DNA of 64,000 nucleotides from NCBI GenBank assembly GCA_019311115.1, contig JAFDDB010000002.1, forward strand, positions 25,572 to 89,571. Direction: 5' to 3'. The notes under the pieces are model-generated. The model did not search any database and was not told the origin of the DNA. It saw only the letters and a list, made by a program, of their open reading frames with translations. Shown here piece by piece: positions 1,854 through 64,000 of the stretch. The translations under genes were made by a program, and so were the position numbers. Every line of letters begins with the position of its first letter. The stretch's first letter is position 1. This DNA is from Deltaproteobacteria bacterium (GTDB lineage: Bacteria > Myxococcota_A > UBA9160 > SZUA-336).

Positions 1854-3578
1854 CTACCGGCTCCCGGCGGCCGCAGACGGCCCCGGGGGCTCCGGAAGCG
1901 CTCCGGGGCGCTTCCGAAGCAGTAGCACGCCGGCCACGAAATGCTCGGGAGGGCTCCCGGCCGGCGGCGGGTGGCGCTCGAAGAAGGCCGTGTCCTCCTC
2001 GTAGCGGATCTGCAGGAACCGGTGCAGGGCCGGTGCGTAGCCCGGCAGCCAGGGCGTCCCGGGCCAGCCCAGCATCCCGCGGAATATCATCCGCGGCGGC
2101 TCCCTGCGCAGCTGCTTGACCACCGCCCGGCCCGTTCCCGGGCCGGTCTGGCCCGGGTAGAGCTGCGCGTAGGGCCAGCTGTTGTAGCGGTCCGCCAGGA
2201 AGTAGACGTGCGCCTCGTGGCCGTACACGAAGAAGGGGGCGCCGGGCGGGACCCGGCGCTGGATCTCGAGCACGACGGGCTCGAGCCAGGCCGTCTGCGG
2301 CTCGATCCAGAGATCCGCCCGCTCGAGCTGCAGGTGGTAGGTCGCGCGAGCGTGGAGGGCTCCCGTGAGTCCCGCGCAGACGCCCAGCAGCACGGCGACC
2401 CCGACGGCTTCGAGGCGGGCGGCGCGCCGGCCGGGCGTCCACGAGGCGAAGATCAGCAGCCACACGACGGGGTACACGCTGATCACGTGCGCCCAGTCCG
2501 CCCGCGGAAACGCCGACAGCACGAATCCGAAGGCCAGCTGGGCCAGCAGGAACAGGCGGCCGGTCTCCACGGAGACCGGCCCCCCTCCCCGCCAGGACCG
2601 GAGCCACAGCCACAGCGGCCAGACGAAGACGAGCGGCAGGGACGTGTAGAGCCCGCGCGCGAGCGCCTCGAGCGCCGCCCAGTACACGCCGTACAGGTCC
2701 TCGAACGGAGCGGCTCCCGCCATCAGCAGGTGCCACGGAACCAGCGGCAGGTAGATGCCGCCGACGTTGTCGGCGCGCGTCGCGCCGAAGTCCCACCACG
2801 CCAGCATGTAGCCGGCCGGAATGCCGCTGGTCGGCAGGTAGCCCGTGAACGGGCGCACGAAGCCGCTGTACAGCATCGCCGGCAGCACGCCACGCGCTCC
2901 GAAGTAGCCGAAGAGCGGCACCACGCCGGCGGCCAGTCCGGCTGCGAGCGCGCCCACGCGGCGCAGCCTCTCGCGGCCGGGAACGGGGGCGGTGCGCAGG
3001 AAGACGTGCGGCAACGCCAACTGCAAGAGCAGCGCGGCGGCCAGGTAGATGCCCACGCTCTGCTTCGCCGCGAACGAGATCGCGAGGAAGAGACCCGCCA
3101 GGAACAGGCGCCGCCTCCTCCGGGGCCCGTCGACCAGCACCAGCGGAAGCGCCAGGCAGCCGAAGCAGAAGCTCAGGTCCCAGTACGAGTAGGTGGTGAA
3201 GACGGGGAAGCCGAGCAGCTTGAAGGCGAGCAGCGACGTCCCGAACAGCGCCGCGCGCGCGCGTCCCAGCAGCGGCACGGCCGCCAGGTAGAGGGCCAGG
3301 ACCGTGGCGCAGAAGACCGCGCCCGCCAGCGCGCGGCCGACGCCGACGCTCTCTCCGAAGACCGCCATGGCGAGGGCCACGGCGTAGTTGGCAGCCGGAT
3401 AGGGGTAGGCGTCGATGTCCCGGTAGAACACGCCGCCGTGCAGGACCTTGACGGCGTTGGTGAGCACCGCGCCCTCGTCGGGATTCGGCAGGTGGTGGAC
3501 TCCCCACCAGGCGGAGAGCAGCGCCGCCGCGACTCCCAGCAGCACGCCGAAGCGGGCCGGCTGCAGCCAGATCTGCAT
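1854..3578 (-). CDS. GT-C family membrane glycosyltransferase (GT39/GT83 ArnT/PMT-like)
   Basis: Polytopic membrane protein. It has a PDEG motif in the first periplasmic loop and YPYPAANYAVALAMAVFGES, typical of ArnT/PMT-type polyprenyl-phosphate-sugar transferases. The likely start is the ATG at 3578 (MQIWL), which overlaps the upstream stop as TGATG. Confidence 0.6.
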   Translation of the reverse strand: MQIWLQPARFGVLLGVAAALLSAWWGVHHLPNPDEGAVLTNAVKVLHGGVFYRDIDAYPYPAANYAVALAMAVFGESVGVGRALAGAVFCATVLALYLAAVPLLGRARAALFGTSLLAFKLLGFPVFTTYSYWDLSFCFGCLALPLVLVDGPRRRRRLFLAGLFLAISFAAKQSVGIYLAAALLLQLALPHVFLRTAPVPGRERLRRVGALAAGLAAGVVPLFGYFGARGVLPAMLYSGFVRPFTGYLPTSGIPAGYMLAWWDFGATRADNVGGIYLPLVPWHLLMAGAAPFEDLYGVYWAALEALARGLYTSLPLVFVWPLWLWLRSWRGGGPVSVETGRLFLLAQLAFGFVLSAFPRADWAHVISVYPVVWLLIFASWTPGRRAARLEAVGVAVLLGVCAGLTGALHARATYHLQLERADLWIEPQTAWLEPVVLEIQRRVPPGAPFFVYGHEAHVYFLADRYNSWPYAQLYPGQTGPGTGRAVVKQLRREPPRMIFRGMLGWPGTPWLPGYAPALHRFLQIRYEEDTAFFERHPPPAGSPPEHFVAGVLLLRKRPGALPEPPGPSAAAGSR

Positions 3579-5563
3579 CACTCCACGTACCCCAGGGCGC
3601 GCAGCCGTTCGAGAGCCGCGGCGTCGAGCGCGTCGTCCCCCTGCACGGGAGGCCCTGCGGGCGAGAGGCCGTCGAGCCACTGCGCGAGGGTCCGGGTGTC
3701 CTCGGCGAGCGCAGCCGGGACACTAGGCGCGCCTTCGGGCAGCGAATCCTGCTCGGCGGGGTCGTGCGCGTGTGCGTAGAGTTCGAGCCCTCCGTCGCGC
3801 CGTGCGATGCCCTTCCACGCGCCCCGCTGCAACGAAGCGCGGTGCGGCCGCACGAGCTTGCCGACCTCGAACGCCGGGTCCGGGTGGAGTTCCGCTACGA
3901 CGTCGCGGGGCTCGAAGCGCGCCAACAGGTTGCGGCCGCGCATGTCGTCCGGCCGCGCGGCACCGGCGAGGGCGAGCAGTGTCGGCGCGACGTCGAGCAG
4001 GTCCACCGGCTCGTCGCGGCGCGCGCCGGCGCCCGGGTTGCGCGCATCGTGGATGACCAGGGGCACGCGCAGGGACTCCGTGAACAGCGTGAGCCCGTGG
4101 TTCCAGCGCCCGTGCTCGTGAAACTCCTCGCCGTGATCCGACACCACCACGACGACCGTGTTCTCGCCGTAGCCGCGCTCCTCGAGGCGCCGCAGCAGCT
4201 TCCCGAGTCCCGCGTCGACCGCCGCGATCTCGGCGTCGTACAGGTCGATCATCAGCGCGCGCTCGGCCTCGGGCAGCTCGCGCCCCGACCGGGACAGACG
4301 CCACATGCGGTCCGAGGTGAAGCGCGGTCGCTCACCCGCCGAGGCGGGCCAGGGCCGCGCGAACCTCTCGCGGAAGCGCCGCGGCGGCGTGTAGCCCGCG
4401 TGCGGGTCCATGTAGTGCACGTAAAGGAAGAAGGGGGCGTCCAGCGTCTCGGGCAGCAGATCGAGCGCGGCGCGGTTCACCTCGGGCGCGCGCGGGGCGC
4501 GGAGCGGTGCGGTGCCGCGATAGCGCAGCAGCGGGTCGCCCTTTCCCTCCTCGAGCCGGTGCGACAGCGCACGCCAGCCGTCGAAGCCGCGCGCGAAGCC
4601 CTGCTCCTCGGTGATGTGCACGAAGTTCCCGGAGACGCCGTAGGTGCGGTAGCCCGCGGCTCGCAGCGCCTCGGCCAGCGTCGGCAGGGCTGGGTCGAGT
4701 CCGCTCGCGAACGACACGGCGCCGTGCTCCGACGGCAGGCGCGAGGTGAACAGCGACCCCACCGAGGGCTTCGTCCAGGACGACGTCGCGCTGGCCCGCG
4801 AGAAGAGCGTGCCCGATGCGGCGAGCGCGTCGATCTCGGGCGAGGTCGGGCGCTCGTAGCCGTAGGCGCCCACGTGGTCCGCCCGCAGCGTGTCTATCAT
4901 GACGAGCACCAGGTTCGGTGGACGCGGACCGGCCGCGACGCTCAGCGCGAGCAGCACCTGCCCGCCGAAGTAGAGCGGCAGGCCCCAGAGCCGGTTGCCG
5001 AAGCCGGGGCTCACGAAGCGGTCGCGAGCCACGGCCAGGTCGGACACGAAGAAGAGCGTCGCTCCGGCCAGGATCCGCAGGTCGCCCGCATGAGCCGACG
5101 CCCCGGCCGAGAGCACGACCATGACGGAGATGGCGACCACGTACGCGCGCACGGCGAACACCATGGGTCCCGACACGTGCGGCCCGAGCCAGCGCAGCGC
5201 CACGAACGCCACGACGGCGACGGGGAGCGCGACGGCCCCGGCGACGCGCAGGTCCAGGCCGAGCACGGCAAAGCCGACCGCGTAGGCGACGTGTCCCATC
5301 AGGAAGCTCACGAGGCCGGAGCGGAAGGCGACCGCCGCGTGCGGAATCAGCAGCACGTCGCCGCCGAAGGACAGCGCGAGCCCGGCCAGGATCCAGCGCC
5401 CGTAGGCCGAGTCGGCGGCGCCCGCCGTGACGGCGAGCGCGAAGAGCCCGGCGCTCGCCAGCGGCTTGGCGATCCAGATGCCCGCGCGCCAGCGGCGCCA
5501 GTCGGCCAGCAGCAACGCGGCGAGGAATACCGCGACCCCTGCGATCCAGGAGCCCGCCGTCAC
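3578..5563 (-). CDS. fusion protein: N-terminal YhhN-family (lysoplasmalogenase/TMEM86-like) membrane domain + C-terminal sulfatase/alkaline-phosphatase-superfamily domain
   Basis: N-terminal motifs SFGGDVLL, FLMGHVAYAVGF and LFFVSD match YhhN signatures (LGDxxL, FxxxHxxY, FxSD). C-terminal LVLVMIDTLRADHVGAYGYERPTSPEIDALAASGTLF and VVVVSDHGEEFHEHGRWNHG match sulfatase/PF00884. The start is set at the GTG at 5563, which overlaps the upstream TGA as GTGA; the 250 upstream codons of the listed ORF overlap the neighbouring gene and are high-GC noise. Confidence 0.6.
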   Translation of the reverse strand: MTAGSWIAGVAVFLAALLLADWRRWRAGIWIAKPLASAGLFALAVTAGAADSAYGRWILAGLALSFGGDVLLIPHAAVAFRSGLVSFLMGHVAYAVGFAVLGLDLRVAGAVALPVAVVAFVALRWLGPHVSGPMVFAVRAYVVAISVMVVLSAGASAHAGDLRILAGATLFFVSDLAVARDRFVSPGFGNRLWGLPLYFGGQVLLALSVAAGPRPPNLVLVMIDTLRADHVGAYGYERPTSPEIDALAASGTLFSRASATSSWTKPSVGSLFTSRLPSEHGAVSFASGLDPALPTLAEALRAAGYRTYGVSGNFVHITEEQGFARGFDGWRALSHRLEEGKGDPLLRYRGTAPLRAPRAPEVNRAALDLLPETLDAPFFLYVHYMDPHAGYTPPRRFRERFARPWPASAGERPRFTSDRMWRLSRSGRELPEAERALMIDLYDAEIAAVDAGLGKLLRRLEERGYGENTVVVVVSDHGEEFHEHGRWNHGLTLFTESLRVPLVIHDARNPGAGARRDEPVDLLDVAPTLLALAGAARPDDMRGRNLLARFEPRDVVAELHPDPAFEVGKLVRPHRASLQRGAWKGIARRDGGLELYAHAHDPAEQDSLPEGAPSVPAALAEDTRTLAQWLDGLSPAGPPVQGDDALDAAALERLRALGYVE

Positions 5564-7230: not shown

Positions 7231-7360
7231 GCGCGGAGTCTACTGGAGCGCCCGTACGCTGTCCGCCGCTCGTGCTGCGCGCGTGCTGCGCATCGGAGTT
7301 CCGGGCGATGGCCTATAATGCCGGCGCGCGGGGGACGCTTCTCCGCCACCGGAGGTTCGA
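7231..7360. promoter_or_regulatory. divergent promoter region; TATAAT at 7315-7320, GGAGG SD 6 nt before the ATG at 7361
   Basis: This is the only sizeable non-coding gap between the divergent GT-C operon and the GT2-methyltransferase gene. It contains a perfect -10 hexamer (ggccTATAATgcc); the -35 is weak. Confidence 0.3.
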
Positions 7361-8887
7361 ATGTCCTCGAAGCCGGAGCCGCGGGTCCACCCGGACCACG
7401 AGCACGTCGAGGGCATCGCGCGGCGCCGAAAGGAGCTCGGCGACGACTCTCCCCGCATCGGCCTGTTCCTCTTCGAGTGCCAGGACGCCGAGCTGCTGAG
7501 ACAGACGCTCGAGCGCGTTCCGGACGCGGCCATCGACTGGATCGAAGAGATCGTGGTCGTGCTCGCCGATCCCGAAGCCGACGTGCAGCTCGAGCCGGTC
7601 GAGCAGCGCGGAGGCCGCGAGGTTCCGGTGCGCATCCACCGTCCGCCGCGCGCCAGCGGCTACGGCGCCACGCGCCGCGAGGCCTTCGAGTACGCGCTGC
7701 GGCGCGGCTTCGACCACGCCGTCGTCATGCGCGGCGACGGACTGCACCCTCCCGAGCGGCTGCCGGACCTGCTCTACCCCGCGCTGCTCGAGGGCCACCC
7801 GCTCGTCGTGCTCTCCCGCATCACCGGGCTGTCCCCCGTGCACAGGACGGCGGCCGCGTTCCAGGGCCGGCTGCTCGGCACGCGCCTGCACGACTACCTG
7901 TCGGGCTTCCGACTGTACAGCGCGGATCTGCTCCGCTGTGTGCCCTTCCAGCTCGACGCGGAGGAGCGCGGCTTCGACGTCGAGATCCTGATCCAATGCC
8001 GCGCACTCGGCATCTCGGCCCACGAAGCCCGCGTCCCCGAGCTGTGGCGCGAGCCCGACCCCCCCGGCGGCGCGCTGGCCCACGCGCTTCGCGCGTGCTG
8101 GATGGCCGTCGAGTACCGGCTGCACCAGCTGCACGTGACCCGCGACGGCCGCTACATGGTCGACCCCGGCACTCACTACACGTTCAAGCAGAGTCCGAGC
8201 GGCTCGCACGTGCAGATCGTCGAGGCGATCCAGCCCGGCAGCGAGGTGCTCGACCTGGGCTGCTCGCAGGGCCTGCTGACGCGGCCCCTTCGAGCGAAGG
8301 GCGTGCGCGTCACCGGCGTCGACATCTGCCCCCCGGAACGCTGGGCCGAGGAGATGGACGCGTACTTCGAGCGCGATCTCGAGATGCCGCTCGAGCTGCC
8401 GGTCGCGCGCAAGTTCGACTACGTGATCGTCGCGGATGTGATCGAGCACGTTCGCGAGCGCGCGCAGCTGCTACGCAGCGTGCGGCGCTACCTGAAGGAA
8501 GACGGGCGCATGCTGATCTCGACGCCGAACATCGCGCTCTGGTTCTACCGGCTCTCGCTGCTGGCCGGACGCTTCGAGTACGGACCGCGCGGCGTGCTCG
8601 ACTACACGCACGTGCACCTGTACACCAAGGCGTCATTTCGCCGCGAAGTCGAGCGCGCCGGCTTCCGCGTGCTGCGCGAGCGCGTGACCTCGCTGCCCTT
8701 CGAGGTCGTCTTCCGCTCGACCGGGCGCAGCCGCTTTATCCGGGCGATCACCGCCACCTACCACGCGGCGGCGCGACTATGGCCACAGATGTTCGCGTAC
8801 CAGAACATCCTGGAGGCCGAGATCACCACCTTGGACGATGAGGCGACCTCGGACCGGGGTTTGACTCGATCCCGGAAACCCTCCTAG
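7361..8887 (+). CDS. bifunctional family-2 glycosyltransferase / class I SAM-dependent methyltransferase
   Basis: The N-terminal half resembles a GT-A/GT2 polyprenyl-phosphate-sugar synthase (ArnC/DPM1-like). The C-terminal half has the SAM methyltransferase motifs VLDLGCSQG, DYVIVADVIEHV and MLISTPN. Confidence 0.7.
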   Translation: MSSKPEPRVHPDHEHVEGIARRRKELGDDSPRIGLFLFECQDAELLRQTLERVPDAAIDWIEEIVVVLADPEADVQLEPVEQRGGREVPVRIHRPPRASGYGATRREAFEYALRRGFDHAVVMRGDGLHPPERLPDLLYPALLEGHPLVVLSRITGLSPVHRTAAAFQGRLLGTRLHDYLSGFRLYSADLLRCVPFQLDAEERGFDVEILIQCRALGISAHEARVPELWREPDPPGGALAHALRACWMAVEYRLHQLHVTRDGRYMVDPGTHYTFKQSPSGSHVQIVEAIQPGSEVLDLGCSQGLLTRPLRAKGVRVTGVDICPPERWAEEMDAYFERDLEMPLELPVARKFDYVIVADVIEHVRERAQLLRSVRRYLKEDGRMLISTPNIALWFYRLSLLAGRFEYGPRGVLDYTHVHLYTKASFRREVERAGFRVLRERVTSLPFEVVFRSTGRSRFIRAITATYHAAARLWPQMFAYQNILEAEITTLDDEATSDRGLTRSRKPS

Positions 8888-8918
8888 AATTGACCGGTTA
8901 CAGGAGATCCGGCAGGCG

Positions 8919-9737
8919 ATGGTAGAGCTCGACTACGCGCGTCTCGAGGCCTTCGCGCGCGACCGGAAGGGCGAGTTCGCGAGCGCCGACCCGTTTCCGC
9001 ACGTGGTGATCGACGACTTCCTGCCCCCGGACGACGCCGAGAAGGTGCTCGCCGAGTTCGCGGTGACCGAGTCCGGCTGGAACCACTACCACCACTACAA
9101 CGAGAAGAAGTTGGCGCTGACCGACGTGTCGCGGATGGGACCGCACACGCAGCAGGTGTTCGCCGCCCTGCAGGACGACCGGTTCGTCGCGTTCCTGGCT
9201 GCGCTCACGGGGATCGACGCGCTGATCTCGGACCCCGACCTCGACGGCGCCGGCATGCACCAGATCGTGCCGGGCGGCTTCCTGAACGTGCACACCGACT
9301 TCCTCTCGCACACGGTGAACTCGGACTGGAGCCGGCAGCTGAACCTGCTGGTCTACTTCAACAAGGACTGGCAGCCGCAGTGGAACGGCGCGCTCGAGCT
9401 CTGGGACGACGAGATGAGCCGCTGCGTCGAGTCCGTGGAGCCGGCCTTCAACCGCGCGGTGCTCTTCCACACGCAGTCCCGTTCCTTCCACGGCCACCCG
9501 CACCGCCTCGCCTGCCCCGACGGCGAGACGCGCAAGTCGATCGCCCTGTACTACTTCCGAGACGAGCACGAACGGCAGGCGCTCACGCCGACGAACTACC
9601 GCGCCATGCCAGACGATCCGGCCTACAAGCACGTGCTCGTCACGGTCGACCGTTGGCTGCTGCGCGTGTACTCGACGCTGAAGCGCTACACGGGTCTGCG
9701 CGACGGCATGATCGACCGTATTCTCGGGCGCTTCTGA
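8919..9737 (+). CDS. 2OG-Fe(II) oxygenase family protein (prolyl-4-hydroxylase-like)
   Basis: HxD...H facial triad (NVHTDF ... HGHPH) and an RxS motif (TRKSIALYY), with a jelly-roll layout. Confidence 0.65.
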   Translation: MVELDYARLEAFARDRKGEFASADPFPHVVIDDFLPPDDAEKVLAEFAVTESGWNHYHHYNEKKLALTDVSRMGPHTQQVFAALQDDRFVAFLAALTGIDALISDPDLDGAGMHQIVPGGFLNVHTDFLSHTVNSDWSRQLNLLVYFNKDWQPQWNGALELWDDEMSRCVESVEPAFNRAVLFHTQSRSFHGHPHRLACPDGETRKSIALYYFRDEHERQALTPTNYRAMPDDPAYKHVLVTVDRWLLRVYSTLKRYTGLRDGMIDRILGRF

Positions 9738-23484: not shown

Positions 23485-24691
23485 CGAGCGGAGAGCCGCC
23501 GTACCCGTGGCCCCGCAGGCGGCGTACCGCTGGTTCGGCGCCGGCGTCGGCTCCTGGTTCGGCGGCTTCGGCATCCAGTCGGTCGTCTTCGCGCACCTGC
23601 TGACGAACGAACTGGGCATCGGGGCCGCCGAACTCGGCATGGCACAGAGCGCGACCATGCTCCCGACCCTTGCCTTCCTGCTCATCGGCGGGGCGTTCGT
23701 CGACCGTCGTGACCCGCGCCGCGTGCTCGTCGCCGCCCACCTGCTGAGCGCGGTTCCAGTGATCGCGCTGGCGGCGGCCGCCGCCACGGGCGCGCTCAGC
23801 TACGGCGCCGTCATCCTGCAGGGCTGCGCGCTCGGCGTGATCGGCGCGTTCGCCGTACCGGCGCGCGACAGCCAACTCTCGCAGGTGGCGGGCTCCGACA
23901 TGCTGCGCGCCGTCACGGGCATGACCATCCTGCAGTTCGCGGCGCAGGCGGTCGGCTCACTGCTCGGCGGCGAGGGCGCCCGCCAGATCGGCGCAGTCCA
24001 GATCATGTGCGTGCAGGCGGCGCTGCTGGCCGGCGGCGCGCTCTTCATGCTGCGCATCCCGCCCTCGCCTCCCGTCGAGCGCCCTGCCCGCTCGACGTGG
24101 CACGACATCGGCGAAGGCATCCGCGAGGTGGCGCGCACGCCGGAGCTCCGGGCGCCCGTGCTGTTGGTGCTGGCGGTCGGTACATGCTTCATCGGCCCCT
24201 TCGTCGTCGTCTTCCCGCTGCTCGTGCGCGACCTGTACCAGGGCGGCGCGCGCGAGCTGGGCTGGGTGATGGCGATGTTCCCCGTCGGCACGATCTCGGG
24301 GTCGCTGGTGCTGCGCGCGCTCGGCGTGCGCCGGCGCGGCCGCGCGTCGATGCTCGCGCTGCTCTTCGGCGCAGCGACGCTGATCGGCATCGCGCGCGAC
24401 CTGCCGTTCGCCGGCATGCTCGCGGCGACCGCGGTCTGGGGCGTGGCCGGAGCCGTGTTCATCAACTGCACGCGCGCCATGTTCCAGGAGGCCGCGCCCG
24501 CCGCGCACCGCGCGCGCTGCCTGTCGGTCTTCCAGCTGGCCTTCACCGGCGCGGCTCCGTTCGGAGCCGCGATCGCCGGGGTCTCGAGCGGGGCCATCGG
24601 GCCGCTCGCGACGCTCGACGCCTACGCCGCGACGATGATCGTCATCGTCGCGCTGATCTGGACGCTGACGCCGACGAGCCAGCTGCGCTAG
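23447..24691 (+). CDS. MFS transporter
   Basis: About 12 TM helices in a major facilitator layout ([13 protein letters not shown] loop motif). Confidence 0.75.
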
Positions 24692-24709
24692 CCCGGCGCC
24701 GGGCGGGAG

Positions 24710-25258
24710 TCAGGCGCGCTCGACGTACTTGCGCTCGCGCGTGTCGATCTTGATGCGCTCGCCCCGGTCGATGAAGCTCGGCACCTGTATCTGCGCGCCG
24801 GTCTCGACGGTGGCGGGCTTGAGCCTGCCGCCCTTCTCGGGCGGATCGGTCTCGGTGATCTCGAGCACCACGAAGTTCGGCAACTCGACGCCCACCGGCC
24901 GGTCGTTGTGCAGCAGGACGCGGACCTCGCAGTTCTCGGCGAGCAGATCCACCCCGTCGATCTGATCGGCAGCGATCTCGACCTGCTCGTAGCTCTCCTG
25001 GTCCATGAAGACGCGCTTCTCGCCGTCGTCGTACAGGTACTGCATGGTCCGCTCGGCCACGTCGGCCTGGGGAAGCGAGTCGCCACCCTTCAACGTGCGG
25101 TCGAGTACCGAGCCCGAGATCAGGCTCTTGAGCTTGAGCCGTACGAAGGCGCCGCCCTTGCCGGGCTTCACGTGCTGGTACTGGGTGATCACGAAGGGCT
25201 CGCCGTCGAGCTCTACGCGCGTTCCCGGCCGCATCTTCGACGTGTCGATGGTCGGCAT
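24710..25258 (-). CDS. efp: elongation factor P
   Basis: MPTIDTSKMRPGTRVELDGEPFVITQYQHVKPGKGGAFVRLKLKSL carries the KPGKG loop with the conserved lysine. The ATG overlaps the speE stop as TGATG. Confidence 0.9.
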   Translation of the reverse strand: MPTIDTSKMRPGTRVELDGEPFVITQYQHVKPGKGGAFVRLKLKSLISGSVLDRTLKGGDSLPQADVAERTMQYLYDDGEKRVFMDQESYEQVEIAADQIDGVDLLAENCEVRVLLHNDRPVGVELPNFVVLEITETDPPEKGGRLKPATVETGAQIQVPSFIDRGERIKIDTRERKYVERA

Positions 25259-26112
25259 CACCCGGTCTCCGTCAGCTCGCGCCACCAGGTCGGCAGCGCG
25301 AAGGCGCCGCGGTGAACGTCGGGGTTGTAGTGGCGGCCGCTCCGCTCGTCCCGCGGCTCACGCAGGCTGCGGCCGTCCTTCAGGCCGGCGACGAATGCCA
25401 TCGCGCCGCAGCTGTAGGTGGGAACGGGCGCCGAGTAGACCTCGGCCGAGCCGAATGCCCCCACCGCGTCACGGAAGGCGGAGGGCAGCTCGTCGCGCTG
25501 CACGAAGGGCATGCCCGCCTGCCGGACCATCACGCCGTCCTCGCTCATGCATTCGGACAGGTCGGACAGGAATTTCTCGTGGAAGAGCACTTCGCCGGGA
25601 CCGACGGGATCGGTCGAGTCCACGATCACCACGTCGAAGGGCGCGCCACCCGCCGCGCGGCGAACCCATTCGGCCGCGTCCCCGATCACCAGCTCGGCAC
25701 GCGGATCGTCGTAGTCGCCCTGGAGGCCCAGGTACTTCGCCGCGACCTCGACCACGCGCTCGTCGATCTCGACCATGACGGCGCGCTCGACATGCGGGTG
25801 CGTGAGCACTTCGCGCAGCACGCCCCCGTCCCCTCCGCCCACGATCAGCACCGCGCGGGGCGGGCGCGCGAAGCCCATCAGCGGCACGTGCGAGATCATC
25901 TCGTGGTAGATGAACTCGTCGGCGAGCGTCGTCTGGATGATGCCGTCGAGAGCCAGCACGCGTCCCAGATGGGGGTGCTCGAAGACCTGCAGCATCTGGT
26001 ACTGCGTCTGCTCGGCGTGCAACTCGACGACGTCGAGGCCGATCGAGATGCCCGTCCCGAAGTCGAAGTCGTGCCACCAGCCCGCGGCCTGCGGAACCTT
26101 CGACTCGCTCAT
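25258..26112 (-). CDS. speE: spermidine synthase (polyamine aminopropyltransferase)
   Basis: Starts at MSESKVPQAAGWW, which is M81 of the listed ORF. Motifs LDGIIQTTLADEFIYHEMISHVPL, LIVGGGDGGVLREV and DSTDPVGPGEVLF match SpeE. Confidence 0.9.
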   Translation of the reverse strand: MSESKVPQAAGWWHDFDFGTGISIGLDVVELHAEQTQYQMLQVFEHPHLGRVLALDGIIQTTLADEFIYHEMISHVPLMGFARPPRAVLIVGGGDGGVLREVLTHPHVERAVMVEIDERVVEVAAKYLGLQGDYDDPRAELVIGDAAEWVRRAAGGAPFDVVIVDSTDPVGPGEVLFHEKFLSDLSECMSEDGVMVRQAGMPFVQRDELPSAFRDAVGAFGSAEVYSAPVPTYSCGAMAFVAGLKDGRSLREPRDERSGRHYNPDVHRGAFALPTWWRELTETG

Positions 26113-26114
26113 CG

Positions 26115-26483
26115 TCAGAGCTCCAGCGGCCGGGACATGCCCTCGATCCCGCGCTTGAGTTCGGTCGTGCGCATGTTGCCCACCTGCAGGTTCGCACGCA
26201 GCGACTCCAGCGCGGCGTAGGGATCGCCCGCCCCGCAGAAGAACGCGTCGGCCGCGAAGTAGCCGTACTCGGGCCAGGTGTGGATCGCGATGTGCGACTC
26301 CGCGAGCGTGGCCGTCGCCGTCACGCCCTGGGGGCTGAACTGGTGCGTGCACACGTCGATCACCGTGGCGCCGCCGGCTTCGGCCGCCTCGAGCAGTGCC
26401 TGGCGCACCGCGTCGAGGTCGTTCAGCAGCTCAGCCGGGCAGTCCCAGGCGTCGATGATGAGATGGATACCGAGGTTCATCAT
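26115..26483 (-). CDS. speH: S-adenosylmethionine decarboxylase proenzyme (small pyruvoyl-dependent type)
   Basis: MMNLGIHLIIDAWDC...LAESHIAIHTWPEYGY contains the ES|H self-cleavage site. Its stop is 3 nt before the speE ATG. Confidence 0.8.
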   Translation of the reverse strand: MMNLGIHLIIDAWDCPAELLNDLDAVRQALLEAAEAGGATVIDVCTHQFSPQGVTATATLAESHIAIHTWPEYGYFAADAFFCGAGDPYAALESLRANLQVGNMRTTELKRGIEGMSRPLEL

Positions 26484-26677
26484 CGACCCGTTGGTCTCCC
26501 GGCTCCGACGCACCGGCGTCGGATGACGACTCGAACCCCCGCTCGATCACGGGCGCGACTGGACAGGCCATCAACTCCATCCCCCTGGGAAAGCGGGCCT
26601 AGAAAAGTGCAAAGCGCCCGCGGTGTCAAGCACTTCGGCGCGAATCGCGCAGCTCTCCGGCGCTCCGCGGATCCGAC

Positions 26678-27559
26678 TCAGGCCAGCGAGATCCAGGTGG
26701 CGCGGGCGCGCGCCAGGCAGGCGCCCGACGCGTCGTGGATCGCGGTCCCGGCGATTCCCTTTCGCCCCTCGAGCGCGATCGACCAGGCGCTCAGGACGAC
26801 GCGCTGGCCAGCCCGAAGGTCCGCGTGAAGCTGCGCGGCGAGCCGTCCCAGCACCAGCGGCTCGAGGCGCTGCGCCTCGGGGTCCTCGAGCAGCGGGAAG
26901 GCGCTCGGGCAGTCGAGTGCCGCCCAGATGAACTCGGGGCGCACGCGGCCGGCCGCGTCGCAGAGCGAGGCGTCCGGGATCCAGGCCGCTGCGGCCAGCC
27001 CGGGACCGGCGAGCCAGCCCGGGAAGACCCGCATCCCGTCCCCCGCCGCGCGATCGGGCCCGCAGACGAAGCAGCGCGGGAAGGGGTGCGTCTCGAAGGC
27101 CCGGCAGCGTCCGGCCACCGCCTCGGCCTGCGCGAATCCGGGCGGCGCCGGCACGTCGAGGGCGAGGTTCGTAGGCCGGGCCGTCGCCAGGACCCGGTCT
27201 CCATCGCGAAGCTCCAGCCCCGGCTCGCCGCTCCTGGACTCGGCGGGCTCCACCCGCAGAGCCTGGCCCAGCGGGGCGGGCGCGCGCAGGGTGACCTCGA
27301 CCGCGGCCGCACCCCGCCCACTCGCCCCCGCCGGCGCGGCCAGCCGGACGGCCAGCAGCCCCGCAACGTAGCCGCCGTTGCCCGTCTCGGGGGGCCCGCA
27401 GTAGCGCGGGTCGATCAGGAGGGTCCGGGCGGCGCCGGGCTCGGGGCTGGACACGGGCGGCTCTCCTCCGCGCGGCGCGATCTCGGGCCTCGCCCGGCCT
27501 CCGCCGCGCCCGCAGCTTGCGGAAAAACGCGCGTTCTGGAAACCGATCGGGGCCCCCAC
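26678..27559 (-). CDS. hypothetical protein, possibly TesB-like double-hotdog acyl-CoA thioesterase (start uncertain)
   Basis: TGNGGYVAGLLAV resembles the FGGQVVGQAL motif of TesB-type thioesterases. The length fits a double hotdog fold. The N-terminal 40 codons are Arg/Pro-rich and may not be translated. Confidence 0.35.
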   Translation of the reverse strand: MGAPIGFQNARFSASCGRGGGRARPEIAPRGGEPPVSSPEPGAARTLLIDPRYCGPPETGNGGYVAGLLAVRLAAPAGASGRGAAAVEVTLRAPAPLGQALRVEPAESRSGEPGLELRDGDRVLATARPTNLALDVPAPPGFAQAEAVAGRCRAFETHPFPRCFVCGPDRAAGDGMRVFPGWLAGPGLAAAAWIPDASLCDAAGRVRPEFIWAALDCPSAFPLLEDPEAQRLEPLVLGRLAAQLHADLRAGQRVVLSAWSIALEGRKGIAGTAIHDASGACLARARATWISLA

Positions 27560-27756
27560 GGCGTATTCTCAGTCAACATGGACGGCGATCCCGTACGCTC
27601 TTCCGGGCCCCTTTTTTCCTGCCGGCACCGAACTGTCCGCGCCCTTCCGCGGTCGGATGACGGTAGATTCGAACCGCCCGGATCGCGTATGCTCCGCGCC
27701 CGATGGACCGGGCAGGCGGATCCCCCCTGCGCCGTCTGACCATTGAGGAGAGACCC

Positions 27757-29435: not shown

Positions 29436-30722
29436 ATGCGCAGACTGTTCATCTCCCTAATTGCGTGCGGACCGCTGGCTTGCGGGTTCGCTCACGTCAA
29501 CCAGGACGCCGCCCAGCGACCCGACCGTGCGATGGGCACGGGGGCGACCCTGATGATGCCGGGGGACTCTCCACCCCGGCTGTCGGAGTACGATCCGTAC
29601 CGCATCGACGGCTCCGAACAGGGCTCGTCGCAGTCCCAGGGGCAGAGCCAGGGACAGCCTGCGCAGCCGACGCGCAGCGCAGGCCCGGCGACCTACGGCG
29701 GGACCGGCTCCGAGTCGTCGAACAGCGGCCCCGGCTCCAGCAGCGGGTCCAGCTCCGGCGGCAGTCCGCCGAGCGGGCCCGATATGACGATGATCGGCGG
29801 CTCGAGCGGCGAGTCGGATTCCGAGTACACGCTGCGCGACATGCCGCTCGGCCCACTGGCCGTGCTGTTCGGCTACCCGTTCTGGATCTTCGGCAAGACG
29901 CTGTCCGAGGAGGCCGACGAGGCGGTCGAGGAGCGCTCGTTGCCCGACCCCGAGCCCAAGCTCAAGCCACGTCCGAGCCACCCGCAGGACGTCGCCGAGC
30001 AGACGCGCCTGGAGCGCGAGAACGCCGAAATGGCCGAGGCCCTGCGCCGCAGCGCGCGCCCGGAGCCGGAGCCCATGTACACGGCCAACTCGAACGCGAT
30101 CCACGACGAACTGGCGGCCCTCGAGCGCTCGCTCGGACGGTCGCCGTCCCCTGCCCCTTCGCGATCCGCCTCGGGTTCCCCAGTAACCTCGCAGCCTCGG
30201 CGCCATGCCGACCGCGACGCGGACGGGCGCTCGGACGTCTGGTCGGAGACCGCTGCCGATGGTACGCGCCGCGAGACGCTCGACGAGAACGGCGATGGGC
30301 GCGTCGACCGCGTCAACTTCTACGACGCGGAGCATCGGCTGGCGAAGTCCGAGGAGGACCTCGACGGCGACGGCCGGCTCGAGACCGTGTCGAAGTACGA
30401 GGGCGGTGAGTTGACGCGCCGCACTGCCGACCAGGACGGCGACGGACGCCCCGACAGCTGGACGCACTACGAGGCCGGCGAGATGGTGCGCCACGAGGTC
30501 GACCAGGACCGCGACGGCCTGCGCGACCTATCGATGATCTACTCGTCCGGTGAGCTGGTCCGTGAAGAACAGGACCGCAATGCGGACGGGCGCCCCGACC
30601 TCATTTCGCACTACCGCAACGGCGAGGTGATCGAGAAGGCCGAGGACACCGACTACGACGGCCATCCCGACCTGCGCTCGTTCTACGAGCACGGCCGCCT
30701 GGTCCGCCGCGAGGTCAGCTGA
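29436..30722 (+). CDS. lipoprotein with Ser/Gly-rich linker and 7 tandem 24-aa DxDGDG (EF-hand-like Ca-binding) repeats
   Basis: ATG with an AGGAG SD. MRRLFISLIACG is a signal peptide with lipobox LIAC. A low-complexity SQGQSQGQ / GSSSGSSSGG region follows, then repeats such as DQDGDGRPDSWTHYEAGEMVRHEV and DRNADGRPDLISHYRNGEVIEKAE. This is the 3' third of the composite listed ORF 28161-30722. Confidence 0.65.
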   Translation: MRRLFISLIACGPLACGFAHVNQDAAQRPDRAMGTGATLMMPGDSPPRLSEYDPYRIDGSEQGSSQSQGQSQGQPAQPTRSAGPATYGGTGSESSNSGPGSSSGSSSGGSPPSGPDMTMIGGSSGESDSEYTLRDMPLGPLAVLFGYPFWIFGKTLSEEADEAVEERSLPDPEPKLKPRPSHPQDVAEQTRLERENAEMAEALRRSARPEPEPMYTANSNAIHDELAALERSLGRSPSPAPSRSASGSPVTSQPRRHADRDADGRSDVWSETAADGTRRETLDENGDGRVDRVNFYDAEHRLAKSEEDLDGDGRLETVSKYEGGELTRRTADQDGDGRPDSWTHYEAGEMVRHEVDQDRDGLRDLSMIYSSGELVREEQDRNADGRPDLISHYRNGEVIEKAEDTDYDGHPDLRSFYEHGRLVRREVS

Positions 30723-31213
30723 TGAGCTCGGCGCCGCCGACTGCGCGTGGCATCGCGGCGTTCGTCGCGGCGCTGTGGGTGAGCCTCACCATCGCCGAGC
30801 GTCCGCTCATGGCGCTCGTCGGGCAGGAGAGCGCGGTCCGCGACCGTGTCAACATCGTCCGCCGCCAGCACGAACTCGTGCAACTCCGCGGACACGACGC
30901 GCTCGCCCGGGTGGCGCGCGCGCACGCCGAAGAGATGGCGCGCGAGAACTACCTGGACCACGTGAACCCCAGCGGCCAGAACCCGCTCGACCGCGTACGC
31001 GCGGCGGGCATCGACGGGTTCCGCCTGCTCGCAGAGAACATCGGCACCACCACCATGCCCGGCGATCGCGTCACGTCGCTGATCGACGGGTGGATGGGAT
31101 CGCCGATCCACCGCGAAAACATCCTCAACCCGGCGTTCAACACGACCGGGATCGCGGTGGTGACTACGGCTGACGGGCGGACCATCGCGGTTCAGCTCTT
31201 CGCCACCTACTGA
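30722..31213 (+). CDS. CAP (SCP/PR-1/YkwD-like) domain protein
   Basis: HAEEMARENYLDHVNPSGQNPLDRVRAAG...GWMGSPIHRENIL matches the CAP domain. The ATG overlaps the upstream stop as TGATG. Confidence 0.7.
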   Translation: MSSAPPTARGIAAFVAALWVSLTIAERPLMALVGQESAVRDRVNIVRRQHELVQLRGHDALARVARAHAEEMARENYLDHVNPSGQNPLDRVRAAGIDGFRLLAENIGTTTMPGDRVTSLIDGWMGSPIHRENILNPAFNTTGIAVVTTADGRTIAVQLFATY

Positions 31214-49690: not shown

Positions 49691-50038
49691 ATGCAGCCTG
49701 TGCAGTCCATGGGCCAGCTCGGATACGAGACCGCATCACCCAAGAGCTACACGACCGCGGTGGTGCTCTCGAGCGTACTCGGGTGGATGGGTGCCCAGCA
49801 CTTCTACCTGGGGCGCTGGGCCGAGGGCTTCCTCGACCTGGGCCTCACCCTGGGGTTCGTGTCGGCCTTCCTGACCGGACACCCCTTCTGGGGAATGGGA
49901 CTGCTCGCCGTCGATCTGGCTCACGAAGGGTTCGTGACGATCGCGCTGCTCACCGGGAACTTCCGGGACGGGGATGGACTCCGGGTCATGTACCCGGGAC
50001 AGCGCCCCGCCCCGCAACCTGACACAGGAGTGTGGTGA
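49691..50038 (+). CDS. TM2 domain-containing protein
   Basis: [26 protein letters not shown] matches the TM2 (PF05154) GxxGxHxFYxG motif. This is the C-terminal 115 codons of the listed ORF. Confidence 0.6.
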
Positions 50039-50289
50039 TGCAAGACGCGACGATGAACAGCCCGGCGATGATGTCGGAAGTGAGCGACAAGGGATTCGTT
50101 CCCACGGTGCTGCTCTGCTTCTTCCTCGGCGGATTCGGCGTGCACCGCTTCTACGCCGGAAAGGTCGGAACCGGCCTGCTCCAACTGTTGACGCTGGGCG
50201 GCCTGGGCATCTGGACGCTCGTGGACCTGATCTTGCTCGTCACGGGCAACTTCAAGGACAAGAGCGGAGCGCCGATCAAGGCGTCCTGA
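50038..50289 (+). CDS. TM2 domain-containing protein
   Basis: [27 protein letters not shown] is a TM2 motif. The ATG overlaps the preceding stop as TGATG. Confidence 0.65.
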
Positions 50290-62367: not shown

Positions 62368-63142
62368 GTTCGCGTACGAACGCGCCCGCCGCCTCGATGG
62401 CTTCGGCGCGGGAGCCGGCCGCGTGGACGCGCTGCACGAGCTCGCTGCCCACGATGACGCCGTCGGCGAAACCCGCGATCTGGCCGGCCTGCTCCGGCGT
62501 CGACACGCCGAAGCCGACGCAGACCGGGAGCGAGCTCACGCGCTGGATGCGTCCCACGAGCGTGCGCAGGTCGGTCGGCAGCTGCTTGCGCGCGCCGGTC
62601 ACGCCGGTGACCGAGACGCAGTACAGGAAACCCTTGCTGTGCTGCGCCACCCGCACGATCCGCTCCGGCGGGCTGGTCGGCGTGATCAGCAGGATCGGGT
62701 GCACGTCCTTCGCGGCGCAGGTCTCGGCCAGCACCGGGGCTTCTTCGTAGGGCAGGTCCACCGCGATCAGCCCGTCGATGCCCGAGTCGGCGCAGGTCTC
62801 GATGAACGGCTCTTCGCCGCGCGCCAGGATGTTGTTCGCGTAACCCATCAGCACGAGCGGAATCTCGCTGACCTCGCGCAGGCGCCGGACCAGGTCGAAG
62901 ATCTGCGCCGGCGTCACGCCGCCCTTCAGCGCGCGCAGCGAGGCGGCCTGGACGGTCGGTCCGTCGCCGATCGCGTCGCTGTGCGGCAGGCCCAGCTCGA
63001 TCACGTCGGCGCCCGCCGCCGCCAGCTCCGGCACCAGCTCGGCCGTCATCTCGAGATCGGGGTCGCCCGCGGTGACGAAGACGATCAACGCGGCGCGCCC
63101 TTCGGCGCGGGTGCGTTCGAAGGCGGCGTCGATGCGGTTCAC
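62336..63142 (-). CDS. trpA: tryptophan synthase alpha chain
   Basis: GTG start overlapping the trpB stop (GTGA). [14 protein letters not shown]...[13 protein letters not shown]...[10 protein letters not shown] matches TrpA. Confidence 0.85.
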
Positions 63143-64000
63143 CTGCGCACCTCGAGCAGGCGGCGCGCCTCGGCCACGTCCTTGTCCCCGCGGCCCGACA
63201 GGTTGAGCACGACGAGGCTGCCCTCGGGCAGCGACGGGGCGCGGCGCCGCAGCTCGGCGATCGCGTGCGCGGACTCGAACGCGGGCAGGATCCCCTCGGT
63301 CCGGGCCAGGTAGACGAAGGCGTCGAGCGCCTCGGCGTCCGTGGCCGGCACGTACTCGGCTCGCCCGGTCTCCTTGTAGAAGCTGTGCTCGGGCCCGACG
63401 CCCGGGTAGTCGAGCCCGGCCGAGATCGAGTGCGCCTCGAAGATCTGGCCGTCGTCGTCCTGCAGCACGTAGGAGCGGCTGCCGTGGAGCACTCCCGGCG
63501 AGCCCGCAGTGAGCGTCGCCCCGTGCGGGCCGACCCCGACTCCCTCCCCTCCGGCCTCGACGCCGACCATGGCCACGCCGTCGTCGTGGCGAAAGGGGTG
63601 GAAGAAGCCGATGGCGTTGCTGCCCCCACCGACGCACGCGATCAACAGGTCCGGCAGCCGTCCCTCGGCCGCCAGGATCTGCTCGCGCGCCTCCTCGCCG
63701 ATCACCGTCTGGAGCTCGCGGACCAGCAGCGGGTAGGGATGCGGACCGGCCGCCGACCCGATCAGGTAGTAGGTGGTGCGCACGTTCGTGGCCCAGTCGC
63801 GCATGGCCTCGTTCATGGCGTCCTTGAGGGTGCGGCTGCCCGACTCGACGGAGTGCACGCGCGCACCGAGCAGCTCCATGCGGAAGACGTTCAGCTCCTG
63901 GCGCCGCACGTCCTCGGCGCCCATGAACACCTCGCAGTCGAGCCCGTAGCGGGCGCAGGCGGTCGCGGCCGCGACGCCGTGCTGTCCCGCCCCGGTCTCG
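63139..64000 (-). CDS. trpB: tryptophan synthase beta chain, C-terminal portion (gene continues beyond window end)
   Basis: [23 protein letters not shown] and [15 protein letters not shown] match TrpB. The frame stays open to the window edge (upstream [16 protein letters not shown]). Confidence 0.85.

Follow-up and report, generated by a model that had tools for sequence, protein, structure and literature searches.

A compact speH-speE-efp unit

The 64-kb stretch of DNA analyzed here (64,000 nucleotides of contig JAFDDB010000002.1, from a deltaproteobacterium that GTDB places in Myxococcota_A; hereafter the window) carries on its minus strand three closely packed genes, in which efp, coding for elongation factor P (EF-P), follows speH and speE, coding for an S-adenosylmethionine (AdoMet) decarboxylase and a polyamine aminopropyltransferase. 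A first-pass annotation made from the sequence alone had singled out this unit, and its coordinates, strand and gene identities proved correct, with all three proteins scoring above NCBIfam equivalog cut-offs. The observation is thus confirmed and the arrangement is rare; reading the three genes as an operon is reasonable, while the accompanying hypothesis that EF-P is modified with a polyamine is unsupported. The features on which the argument turns are the following.

26115-26483, minus strand: speH, 122 aa, small class-1 S-adenosylmethionine decarboxylase proenzyme
25258-26112, minus strand: speE, 284 aa, polyamine aminopropyltransferase (spermidine synthase)
25256-25270, minus strand: putative speE-efp coupling junction, GGAG (25270-25267), then 8 nt to the start codon within TGATG (25260-25256)
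24710-25258, minus strand: efp, 182 aa, elongation factor P
25148-25168, minus strand: beta3-omega-beta4 loop of EF-P, KPGKGGA, with the tip lysine K34 at 25157-25159
24812-24847, minus strand: domain-III loop I of EF-P, DPPEKG----GRLKPA (residues 138-149), 4 residues shorter and without GDT

The stops and starts of the three genes overlap or abut, as had been described, with junctions of +2 and −1 nt. At the first junction the speH stop does lie close before the speE start, but the spacing is not the 3 nt originally assigned to it: the speH TGA occupies 26117-26115 and the speE ATG 26112-26110, leaving 2 nt, "cg", between them. The second junction is the predicted TGATG overlap, in which the TGA of speE (25260-25258) and the ATG of efp (25258-25256) have 1 nt in common. 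A GGAG motif stands exactly 8 nt 5' of the speE start (26124-26121) and again exactly 8 nt 5' of the efp start (25270-25267). From the layout of stops and starts we infer that the three genes are co-translated; such overlaps are frequent in this genome, an 18-kb gene table listing 13 same-strand junctions of which 5 overlap. The GC content of the window is 71%, and GC at third codon positions (GC3) is uniform, at 0.91-0.94, across speH, speE, efp and their neighbors, so there is no compositional sign of recent foreign origin. A recent horizontal acquisition of speHE was accordingly rejected, with GC3 values of 0.92-0.93 matching the neighboring genes; an older transfer is still compatible with these values.

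A canonical spermidine module

Operons joining speD or speH to speE are well known, E. coli speED among them, and class-1 speH lies beside speE in many phyla. The window resembles these operons in placing a pyruvoyl AdoMet decarboxylase gene next to an aminopropyltransferase gene, with stop and start codons that touch or overlap and with intact catalytic motifs, and differs from them in adding efp as a third cistron, which is found neither at the 159 other efp loci that we surveyed nor at L172 and L173, two loci recovered through their SpeE.

SpeH matches PF02675 (4e-38), scores 132.1 bits against the TIGR03330 cut-off of 75.65, and aligns end to end with the AdoMet decarboxylase of Thermotoga maritima (1TLU). 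It keeps the Glu-Ser self-processing site that yields the pyruvoyl group, ESHI(A/T)IHTWPE, which in the window reads LAES/HIAIHTWPE, as well as the catalytic histidine and, in FxCG (here FFCG), the catalytic cysteine. SpeE exceeds the cut-offs of both TIGR00417 (262.1 bits versus 249.55) and NF002010 (281.6 versus 260), and in alignment with the E. coli (3O4F) and B. subtilis (1IY9) enzymes it retains DEFIYHEM, GGGDG, VEID and D-S-T-D-P-x-G-P. These cover the site for decarboxylated AdoMet (GGGDG) and the D-x-x-D loop with its catalytic and gatekeeper roles. It is predicted to be a canonical spermidine synthase/aminopropyltransferase, whose acceptor amine could be putrescine, agmatine or another amine. 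The speH-speE junction is tight at all eight of the eight loci examined, L172 and L173 among them, with either a 2-nt gap or an overlap of 4 or 8 nt, and at each of them SpeH is the single speD homolog coupled to speE. A single speD homolog paired with speE is treated as a bona fide AdoMet decarboxylase, other SpeD homologs having neofunctionalized toward L-Orn or L-Arg (PMC10407285). SpeH is accordingly classed as a likely class-1 AdoMet decarboxylase, with AdoMet as the substrate predicted from gene context.

An EF-P with a lysine-type loop and a shortened domain III

The efp product contains all three EF-P Pfam domains (PF08207, PF01132 and PF09285, at E-values of about 1e-20 to 1e-22), giving the architecture of a KOW-like N domain, an OB domain and a second, C-terminal OB domain, and scores 216.9 bits against the TIGR00038 cut-off of 185.8; its closest match in the PDB is the EF-P of Clostridium thermocellum (1YBY, 2e-48). 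It falls far under the cut-offs of the EfpL/YeiP families (130.6 versus 216 bits and 110.3 versus 264 for NF003392 and TIGR02178), and where EfpL/YeiP proteins have an arginine tip on an extended loop, this protein has a lysine tip on a 7-residue loop. The modifiable lysine is kept, as had been claimed: the loop reads HVKPGKGGAF, and its tip is residue 34, preceded by P32 and G33. This loop is by no means peculiar to the linked loci. Of the 120 closest EF-P clusters, 92 contain the stretch YQHVKPGKGGAF, which relatives share whether or not their efp is linked, KPGKGGAF occurs also in many unrelated phyla, and the loop YQHVKPGKGGAFVR(L/M)(K/R)LKS is the same in seven relatives whose efp is not linked to speHE.

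Domain III is where the protein departs from its homologs. Alignment with EF-Ps in the PDB places a 4-residue deletion there that removes the conserved GDT motif, and in this respect the protein is unlike known bacterial activated EF-Ps. Loop I has 7 residues at 13 loci, all of this clade, and 11-12 residues with GD(T/S) at 79 others, the clade sequence KG----GRLKPA standing against KGDTAxGGxKPA. The loci without GDT (the window, L002, L083, L162-L171 and L174-L176) include loci with and without the speHE linkage, and since the deletion is present in unlinked relatives too, it is independent of that linkage. Residues 144-GDT-146 of EF-P contact the E-site codon, D145 and T146 doing so in E. 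coli (PMC11611912). A clade of EF-Ps lacking this motif bears on how EF-P recognizes stalled ribosomes, and specialists on the factor may find its loss more interesting than the linkage to speHE.

By score, then, the protein is an EF-P, yet a divergent one, which raises the question of whether it is a specialized paralog, with a canonical EF-P encoded elsewhere and the position behind speHE reflecting a special role. The loss of GDT and a long branch to canonical EF-Ps, with about 50% identity, would fit such a role. We nevertheless consider it improbable, as the protein passes the equivalog cut-off for EF-P but stays well short of those for EfpL/YeiP, every unlinked relative has the deletion too, so that it does not correlate with the linkage, and no second efp is present in the 64-kb window.

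A rare and loosely conserved gene order

We surveyed 160 efp loci, 80 from a one-genome-per-species GTDB set and 80 from JGI metagenomes, drawn from Nitrospirota, Actinomycetota, Desulfobacterota, Campylobacterota, Lactobacillaceae and other taxa. At least 1.5 kb of upstream sequence is available for 122 of them, and speE or speH appears in the flanks at only one, L082, which belongs to the window's own clade. The earlier statement that efp is unusual as the distal gene is borne out, with speE or speH nearby at none of the 159 efp loci outside the arrangement, and we found no description in the literature of a speE-efp or other polyamine-efp operon in bacteria.

Relatives were taken from the contigs of the closest EF-P and SpeE clusters in a large protein collection. 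A block consisting of a divergently oriented DUF1329 gene, a gene for a hypothetical protein (here called hyp), speH, speE and efp is present in five distinct lineages, the window included, with EF-Ps that are 75-100% identical, as set out below by locus, EF-P identity and speE-efp spacing.

Window: EF-P 100%; −1 nt, TGATG overlap
L162: EF-P 89%; −1 nt, TAGTG overlap
L163 (= L164 = L165 = L082): EF-P 79-80%; +95 nt, promoter-like box in the spacer
L166: EF-P 76-77%; +7 nt
L171: EF-P 75%; +407 nt, opposite-strand 68-aa open reading frame (ORF) in the gap, promoter-like box

Conservation of the gene order, which the first-pass annotation had proposed as a check on its idea, is therefore partial: the order is kept in five lineages, but the junction varies from −1 to +407 nt, and seven related lineages have efp in other contexts (EF-P identity of 60-74%; L167, L174, L083, L175, L169, L176 and L002). 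Conversely, L172 and L173 have speH-speE without a downstream efp, and the efp of L174 and the speHE of L172 lie on separate scaffolds of one ENA assembly. At L176 and L002 the neighborhood runs from a CAP-domain gene through hyp and about 4.4 kb of unrelated genes to efp and an MFS-transporter gene, with speHE missing from that place. This layout suggests that the hyp-efp-MFS neighborhood came first and that speHE fills a variable slot inside it, and because the whole block, including the divergent DUF1329 gene, is syntenic among the linked loci, its conservation appears to be regional and not specific to speE and efp. We also considered whether L173, where speHE is followed by an ADH gene, and L175, where efp is followed by one, record an excision of efp. 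This was rejected, since identity between the two ADHs reaches only about 31% and L173 has an unrelated "hyp" upstream.

In a bootstrapped neighbor-joining tree of EF-P, the linked loci fall into two supported sub-clades, one of the window, L162 and L163 (94%) and one of L166 and L171 (97%). That they form a single EF-P clade could not be upheld, as the relation of the two sub-clades to unlinked relatives is not settled with 182 aa. The shared upstream block, on the other hand, argues for a single origin. On present sequences the arrangement appears to be a shallow and loosely conserved trait of one lineage that seems to have arisen once.

Promoter-like elements before speH and efp

Between hyp and speH lies a gap of 194 nt, which holds the only strongly conserved element that we found upstream of the unit.

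26624-26630, minus strand: CTTGACA box, putative −35 element for speH, 141 nt before its ATG

CTTGACA is identical in all six of the six hyp-speH intergenic regions that could be aligned, regions that otherwise average 43% column identity. It may be the −35 element of a speH promoter or the binding site of a regulator. A consensus scan gave no good −10 to go with it; the box is followed by a T-rich stretch, but by no recognizable TATAAT-type element. The same scan, run over 24400-27700, gave no promoter-like or terminator-like sites between speH, speE and efp, with the limit that it is insensitive in DNA of 71% GC and missed even the conserved TTGACA box. The single hairpin between hyp and speH (26637-26610) was rejected as a terminator; because it overlaps the invariant CTTGACA box, it is probably part of the promoter region. 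A riboswitch or other structured leader upstream of speH was likewise discarded. Rfam gave no match at the gathering threshold in the window, nor at E<=1 in 24600-26800, the 123-nt speH leader folds no better than its shuffles (z=0.01), and the consensus fold of five such sequences is weak (−3.8 kcal/mol).

The longer spacers of the relatives tell more about efp. In the 95-nt speE-efp spacer (L163, 3884-3978) the sequence runs TTGAGA-17-TATGGT-9-ATG, and at the end of the 407-nt spacer of L171 (6200-6244), which also contains the antisense 68-aa ORF, it runs TTGAGC-17-TACCGT-9-GTG. Unlinked relatives have a similar box before efp: TATGGT-9 at L169, TATCGT-9 at L167, TATGGT-8 at L083 and TTTACA-18-TAAGGT-9 at L002. 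A −10-like TAnnGT thus stands 8-9 nt before the efp start, joined at three loci by TTGAGA, TTGAGC or TTTACA 17-18 nt further up. So short a distance to the start suggests that efp mRNA is leaderless or nearly so in this clade, and the presence of the box in relatives suggests that the efp of this group normally owns a promoter. The box is missing wherever efp abuts speE, that is, in the window, L162 and L166, and the window has GACGGA in its place.

These observations bear on whether the three genes form an operon at all. If the efp of the window were read mainly from an unrecognized promoter in the 3' end of speE, then the overlap with speE would reflect compaction only. The relatives with spacers do show efp with its own promoter-like box, overlapping junctions are common in this genome, and the poor sensitivity of the consensus scan at this GC content would let such a promoter escape. 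However, the TAnnGT that relatives have 9 nt upstream is absent from the window, a GGAG stands at the correct distance for loading ribosomes on a longer mRNA, and 24400-27700 returned no promoter-like site. We therefore give little credence to this account and infer that efp is co-transcribed with speHE.

Probable operon fusion by spacer loss

We favor, at a probability of roughly 65%, the explanation that speHE is an ordinary spermidine module in a variable slot upstream of efp and that loss of the intervening spacer fused efp into its operon. The spacer, and with it the promoter belonging to efp, would have been lost in the window's sub-lineage, leaving efp to begin at the final nucleotide of the speE TGA, 8 nt after a GGAG. 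Transcription from near the TTGACA box, some 140 nt before speH, would then yield a tricistronic mRNA, on which ribosomes ending at the speH TGA would re-initiate 2 nt on, at speE, and ribosomes ending at the speE TGA would re-initiate at the overlapping efp ATG. Such a fusion would couple the synthesis of EF-P to that of the spermidine enzymes. The linkage is best understood in these terms, as a loss of spacer that joined efp to the operon inside a block of regional synteny, and not as the mark of a chemical connection of polyamines with EF-P. The locus would then be a clear small example of operon growth, in which a seemingly leaderless, self-promoted efp became a Shine-Dalgarno-led, translationally coupled distal cistron.

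A second possibility is that co-regulation was selected. Spermidine and EF-P both support ribosomes, and a single transcript tuned to growth rate could be adaptive with no covalent link between the two. Two sub-clades have kept the linkage although the genes that follow efp were rearranged, and a 7-nt gap or an overlap is found in three lineages that are spread over both. Yet two linked lineages keep a separate promoter-like element for efp, close relatives are frequently unlinked, the arrangement is shared by none of the 159 other efp loci, and the divergent DUF1329 gene and the thioesterase-like hyp are conserved just as well, which points to regional synteny. For the sub-lineage of the window, the data agree with coordinated expression, which the first-pass annotation had offered as its second explanation and which may be either selected or neutral. 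As an account of the arrangement as a whole we regard selected co-regulation as unlikely, although less so than the other alternatives weighed here.

Several points weigh against fusion by spacer loss as the full explanation. The linkage persists in two well-supported sub-clades (94% and 97%) whose EF-Ps are about 75% identical and which have different genes downstream of efp, and this persistence across both makes some selection for proximity possible. The direction of change, loss of a spacer or gain of one, is not fixed by the EF-P tree. The 3' end of speE may also hold a promoter that the consensus scan missed. Finally, the negative results for modification enzymes given in the following section cover the 64 kb of the window and the flanks of its relatives only.

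Is EF-P modified with a polyamine?

Bacteria activate EF-P by several routes, namely β-lysylation through EpmA, EpmB and EpmC, rhamnosylation by EarP and, in Bacillus, 5-aminopentanolylation (ynbB/gsaB/ymfI), and there are also unmodified EF-Ps of the PGKGP type; epmA is a single-domain paralog of class II LysRS, and epmB is a lysine 2,3-aminomutase. The EF-P of the window resembles the EpmA-type and Bacillus-type proteins in having a lysine-type loop, KPGKGGA, with a proline two positions ahead of the tip lysine. A lysine in place of arginine at the tip excludes the EarP type. In the unmodified PGKGP type the loop is palindromic, with a second proline after the tip (PMC13602936, PMC12856214), so a loop reading PGKGG does not belong to the unmodified actinobacterial type.

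Pfam scans were run on 37 high-GC3 ORFs across the window, and between about 17 and 35 kb they were complemented by the JGI gene table; a few ORFs that lie in gaps or toward the ends of the window, among them 1-643, 50023-50289, 63139-63999 and a sulfatase-like one at about 3578-5560 that the GC3 filter missed, fell outside the scan. The statement that no epmA, epmB or earP lies nearby holds for the scanned ORFs and this gene table. In this the window is unlike the EpmA/B/C and EarP systems, epmC also being missing from the scanned ORFs, and no DHS (PF01916), EpmA/B/C or EarP domain was found either in those ORFs or in the gene table of any related locus. No candidate transferase travels with speH-speE-efp, and the only conserved neighbor of unknown function, hyp, is TesB-like.

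Whether any bacterium carries a polyamine-derived, hypusine-like modification on EF-P is a long-standing question, for which a conserved speE-efp operon would be a good lead; our analysis leaves that lead weak. If K34 did carry such a group, it would be the bacterial counterpart of (deoxy)hypusination and might offset the lack, in this clade, of the GDT loop that reads the E-site codon. That K34 is modified in this way, with an aminopropyl group from decarboxylated AdoMet or an aminobutyl group from spermidine supplied via SpeH and SpeE, seems to us very improbable. Hardly more credible is the corresponding account of the operon, in which a DHS-like enzyme with its gene elsewhere transfers an aminobutyl group from spermidine to K34, or the co-transcribed SpeE aminopropylates K34 directly from decarboxylated AdoMet, so that the operon unites supply and target in the manner of archaeal aIF5A clusters.

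Some evidence does lean toward that account. The speE and efp genes are tightly coupled in the window and in L162, the lysine-type loop retains P32 and G33, and the known bacterial modification genes were not found among the scanned ORFs. About half of bacterial EF-P types lie outside the known modification classes (PMC13602936), and a DHS-based modification of bacterial EF-P has been proposed, although never demonstrated (PMC6544042). Against it, neither DHS nor any other transferase was found in the window or at the linked loci, and SpeE looks canonical, with scores above its equivalog cut-offs and standard diamine-site motifs. Three of the five linked lineages have a loose speE-efp junction, the long spacers carrying a promoter-like box and the longest an antisense ORF, and an identical loop occurs in seven relatives with unlinked efp. 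The seemingly single origin makes the arrangement one evolutionary event, and the bacterial DHS homologs characterized so far are homospermidine synthases, named SpeY (PMC10407285). Taken as a pointer to a polyamine-derived modification, the linkage thus fails on its variable junction, on unlinked relatives with the same loop, on regional synteny and on the missing transferase, and a modification of this kind is probably absent.

The nearest real analog is the archaeal aIF5A-agmatinase-DHS cluster, which likewise places a gene of the EF-P/IF5A superfamily beside genes of a polyamine pathway (PMC5178350). The archaeal cluster includes the transferase itself, DHS, is found in about 62% of Euryarchaeota, and is backed by detection of (deoxy)hypusine by mass spectrometry (Prunetti et al. 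2016, PMC5178350). The system in the window, by contrast, has no transferase in its cluster, is confined to one shallow lineage with variable spacing, and is known here from its genes alone. What is new is the gene order; the components are known.

Neighboring genes and other features of the window

Two further features border the unit.

26678-27454, minus strand: hyp, same-strand upstream neighbor outside the spe-efp unit, 258 aa, predicted TesB-like double hot-dog protein
24692-24709, no strand assigned: 18 nt separating efp from the convergent MFS-transporter gene, with the palindrome GCCCGGCGCCGGGC

Pfam and NCBIfam gave no above-threshold match for hyp, the sole match being 4HBT_3 at E=0.068. 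Its AlphaFold2 model (pLDDT 92.9) matches acyl-CoA thioesterase II/TesB in a Foldseek search of the PDB (E=3.5e-11, TM 0.64). Judged from this model, hyp is a TesB-type thioesterase-fold protein and no transferase, and its candidacy as the missing EF-P or polyamine transferase was dropped on the same match to double hot-dog acyl-CoA thioesterases. The family to which it belongs, of about 240 aa and without a Pfam or NCBIfam model, has 1348 homologs at E<=1e-5, the named ones all from Myxococcota, and its invariant residues include CFVCGP..R..GDG. The gene stays near efp even at L002 and L176, where speHE is missing from the site.

Beyond hyp lies the divergently transcribed DUF1329 gene. Downstream of efp, 18 nt off, comes the convergent MFS-transporter gene and then a gene for an alanine/sodium symporter; a terminator scan of the efp/MFS gap gave no T-tract terminator. 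No tRNAs and no Rfam families were found in the window.

Three other stretches of the window deserve mention. On the plus strand at 7319-9734, the gene for a 522-aa protein whose C-terminus is a SAM-methyltransferase domain slightly overlaps the next gene, for a 290-aa 2OG-Fe(II) oxygenase; the two may form a small modification or tailoring gene pair, which lies 15 kb from efp with nothing linking it to efp. At 3578-5560 on the minus strand, a long ORF seems to encode a multi-pass membrane region at the N-terminus and a sulfatase/alkaline-phosphatase-like domain (MIDTLRADH) at the C-terminus. At 29436-31213 on the plus strand, a 428-aa protein without a Pfam match is of low complexity, rich in Ser, Gly and Pro, and repeats the motif D-x-D-G-D-G-R-x-D. 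Its gene shares 1 nt with the next, a CAP-domain gene, and L162 and L176 keep both genes, along with DUF1329, in synteny.

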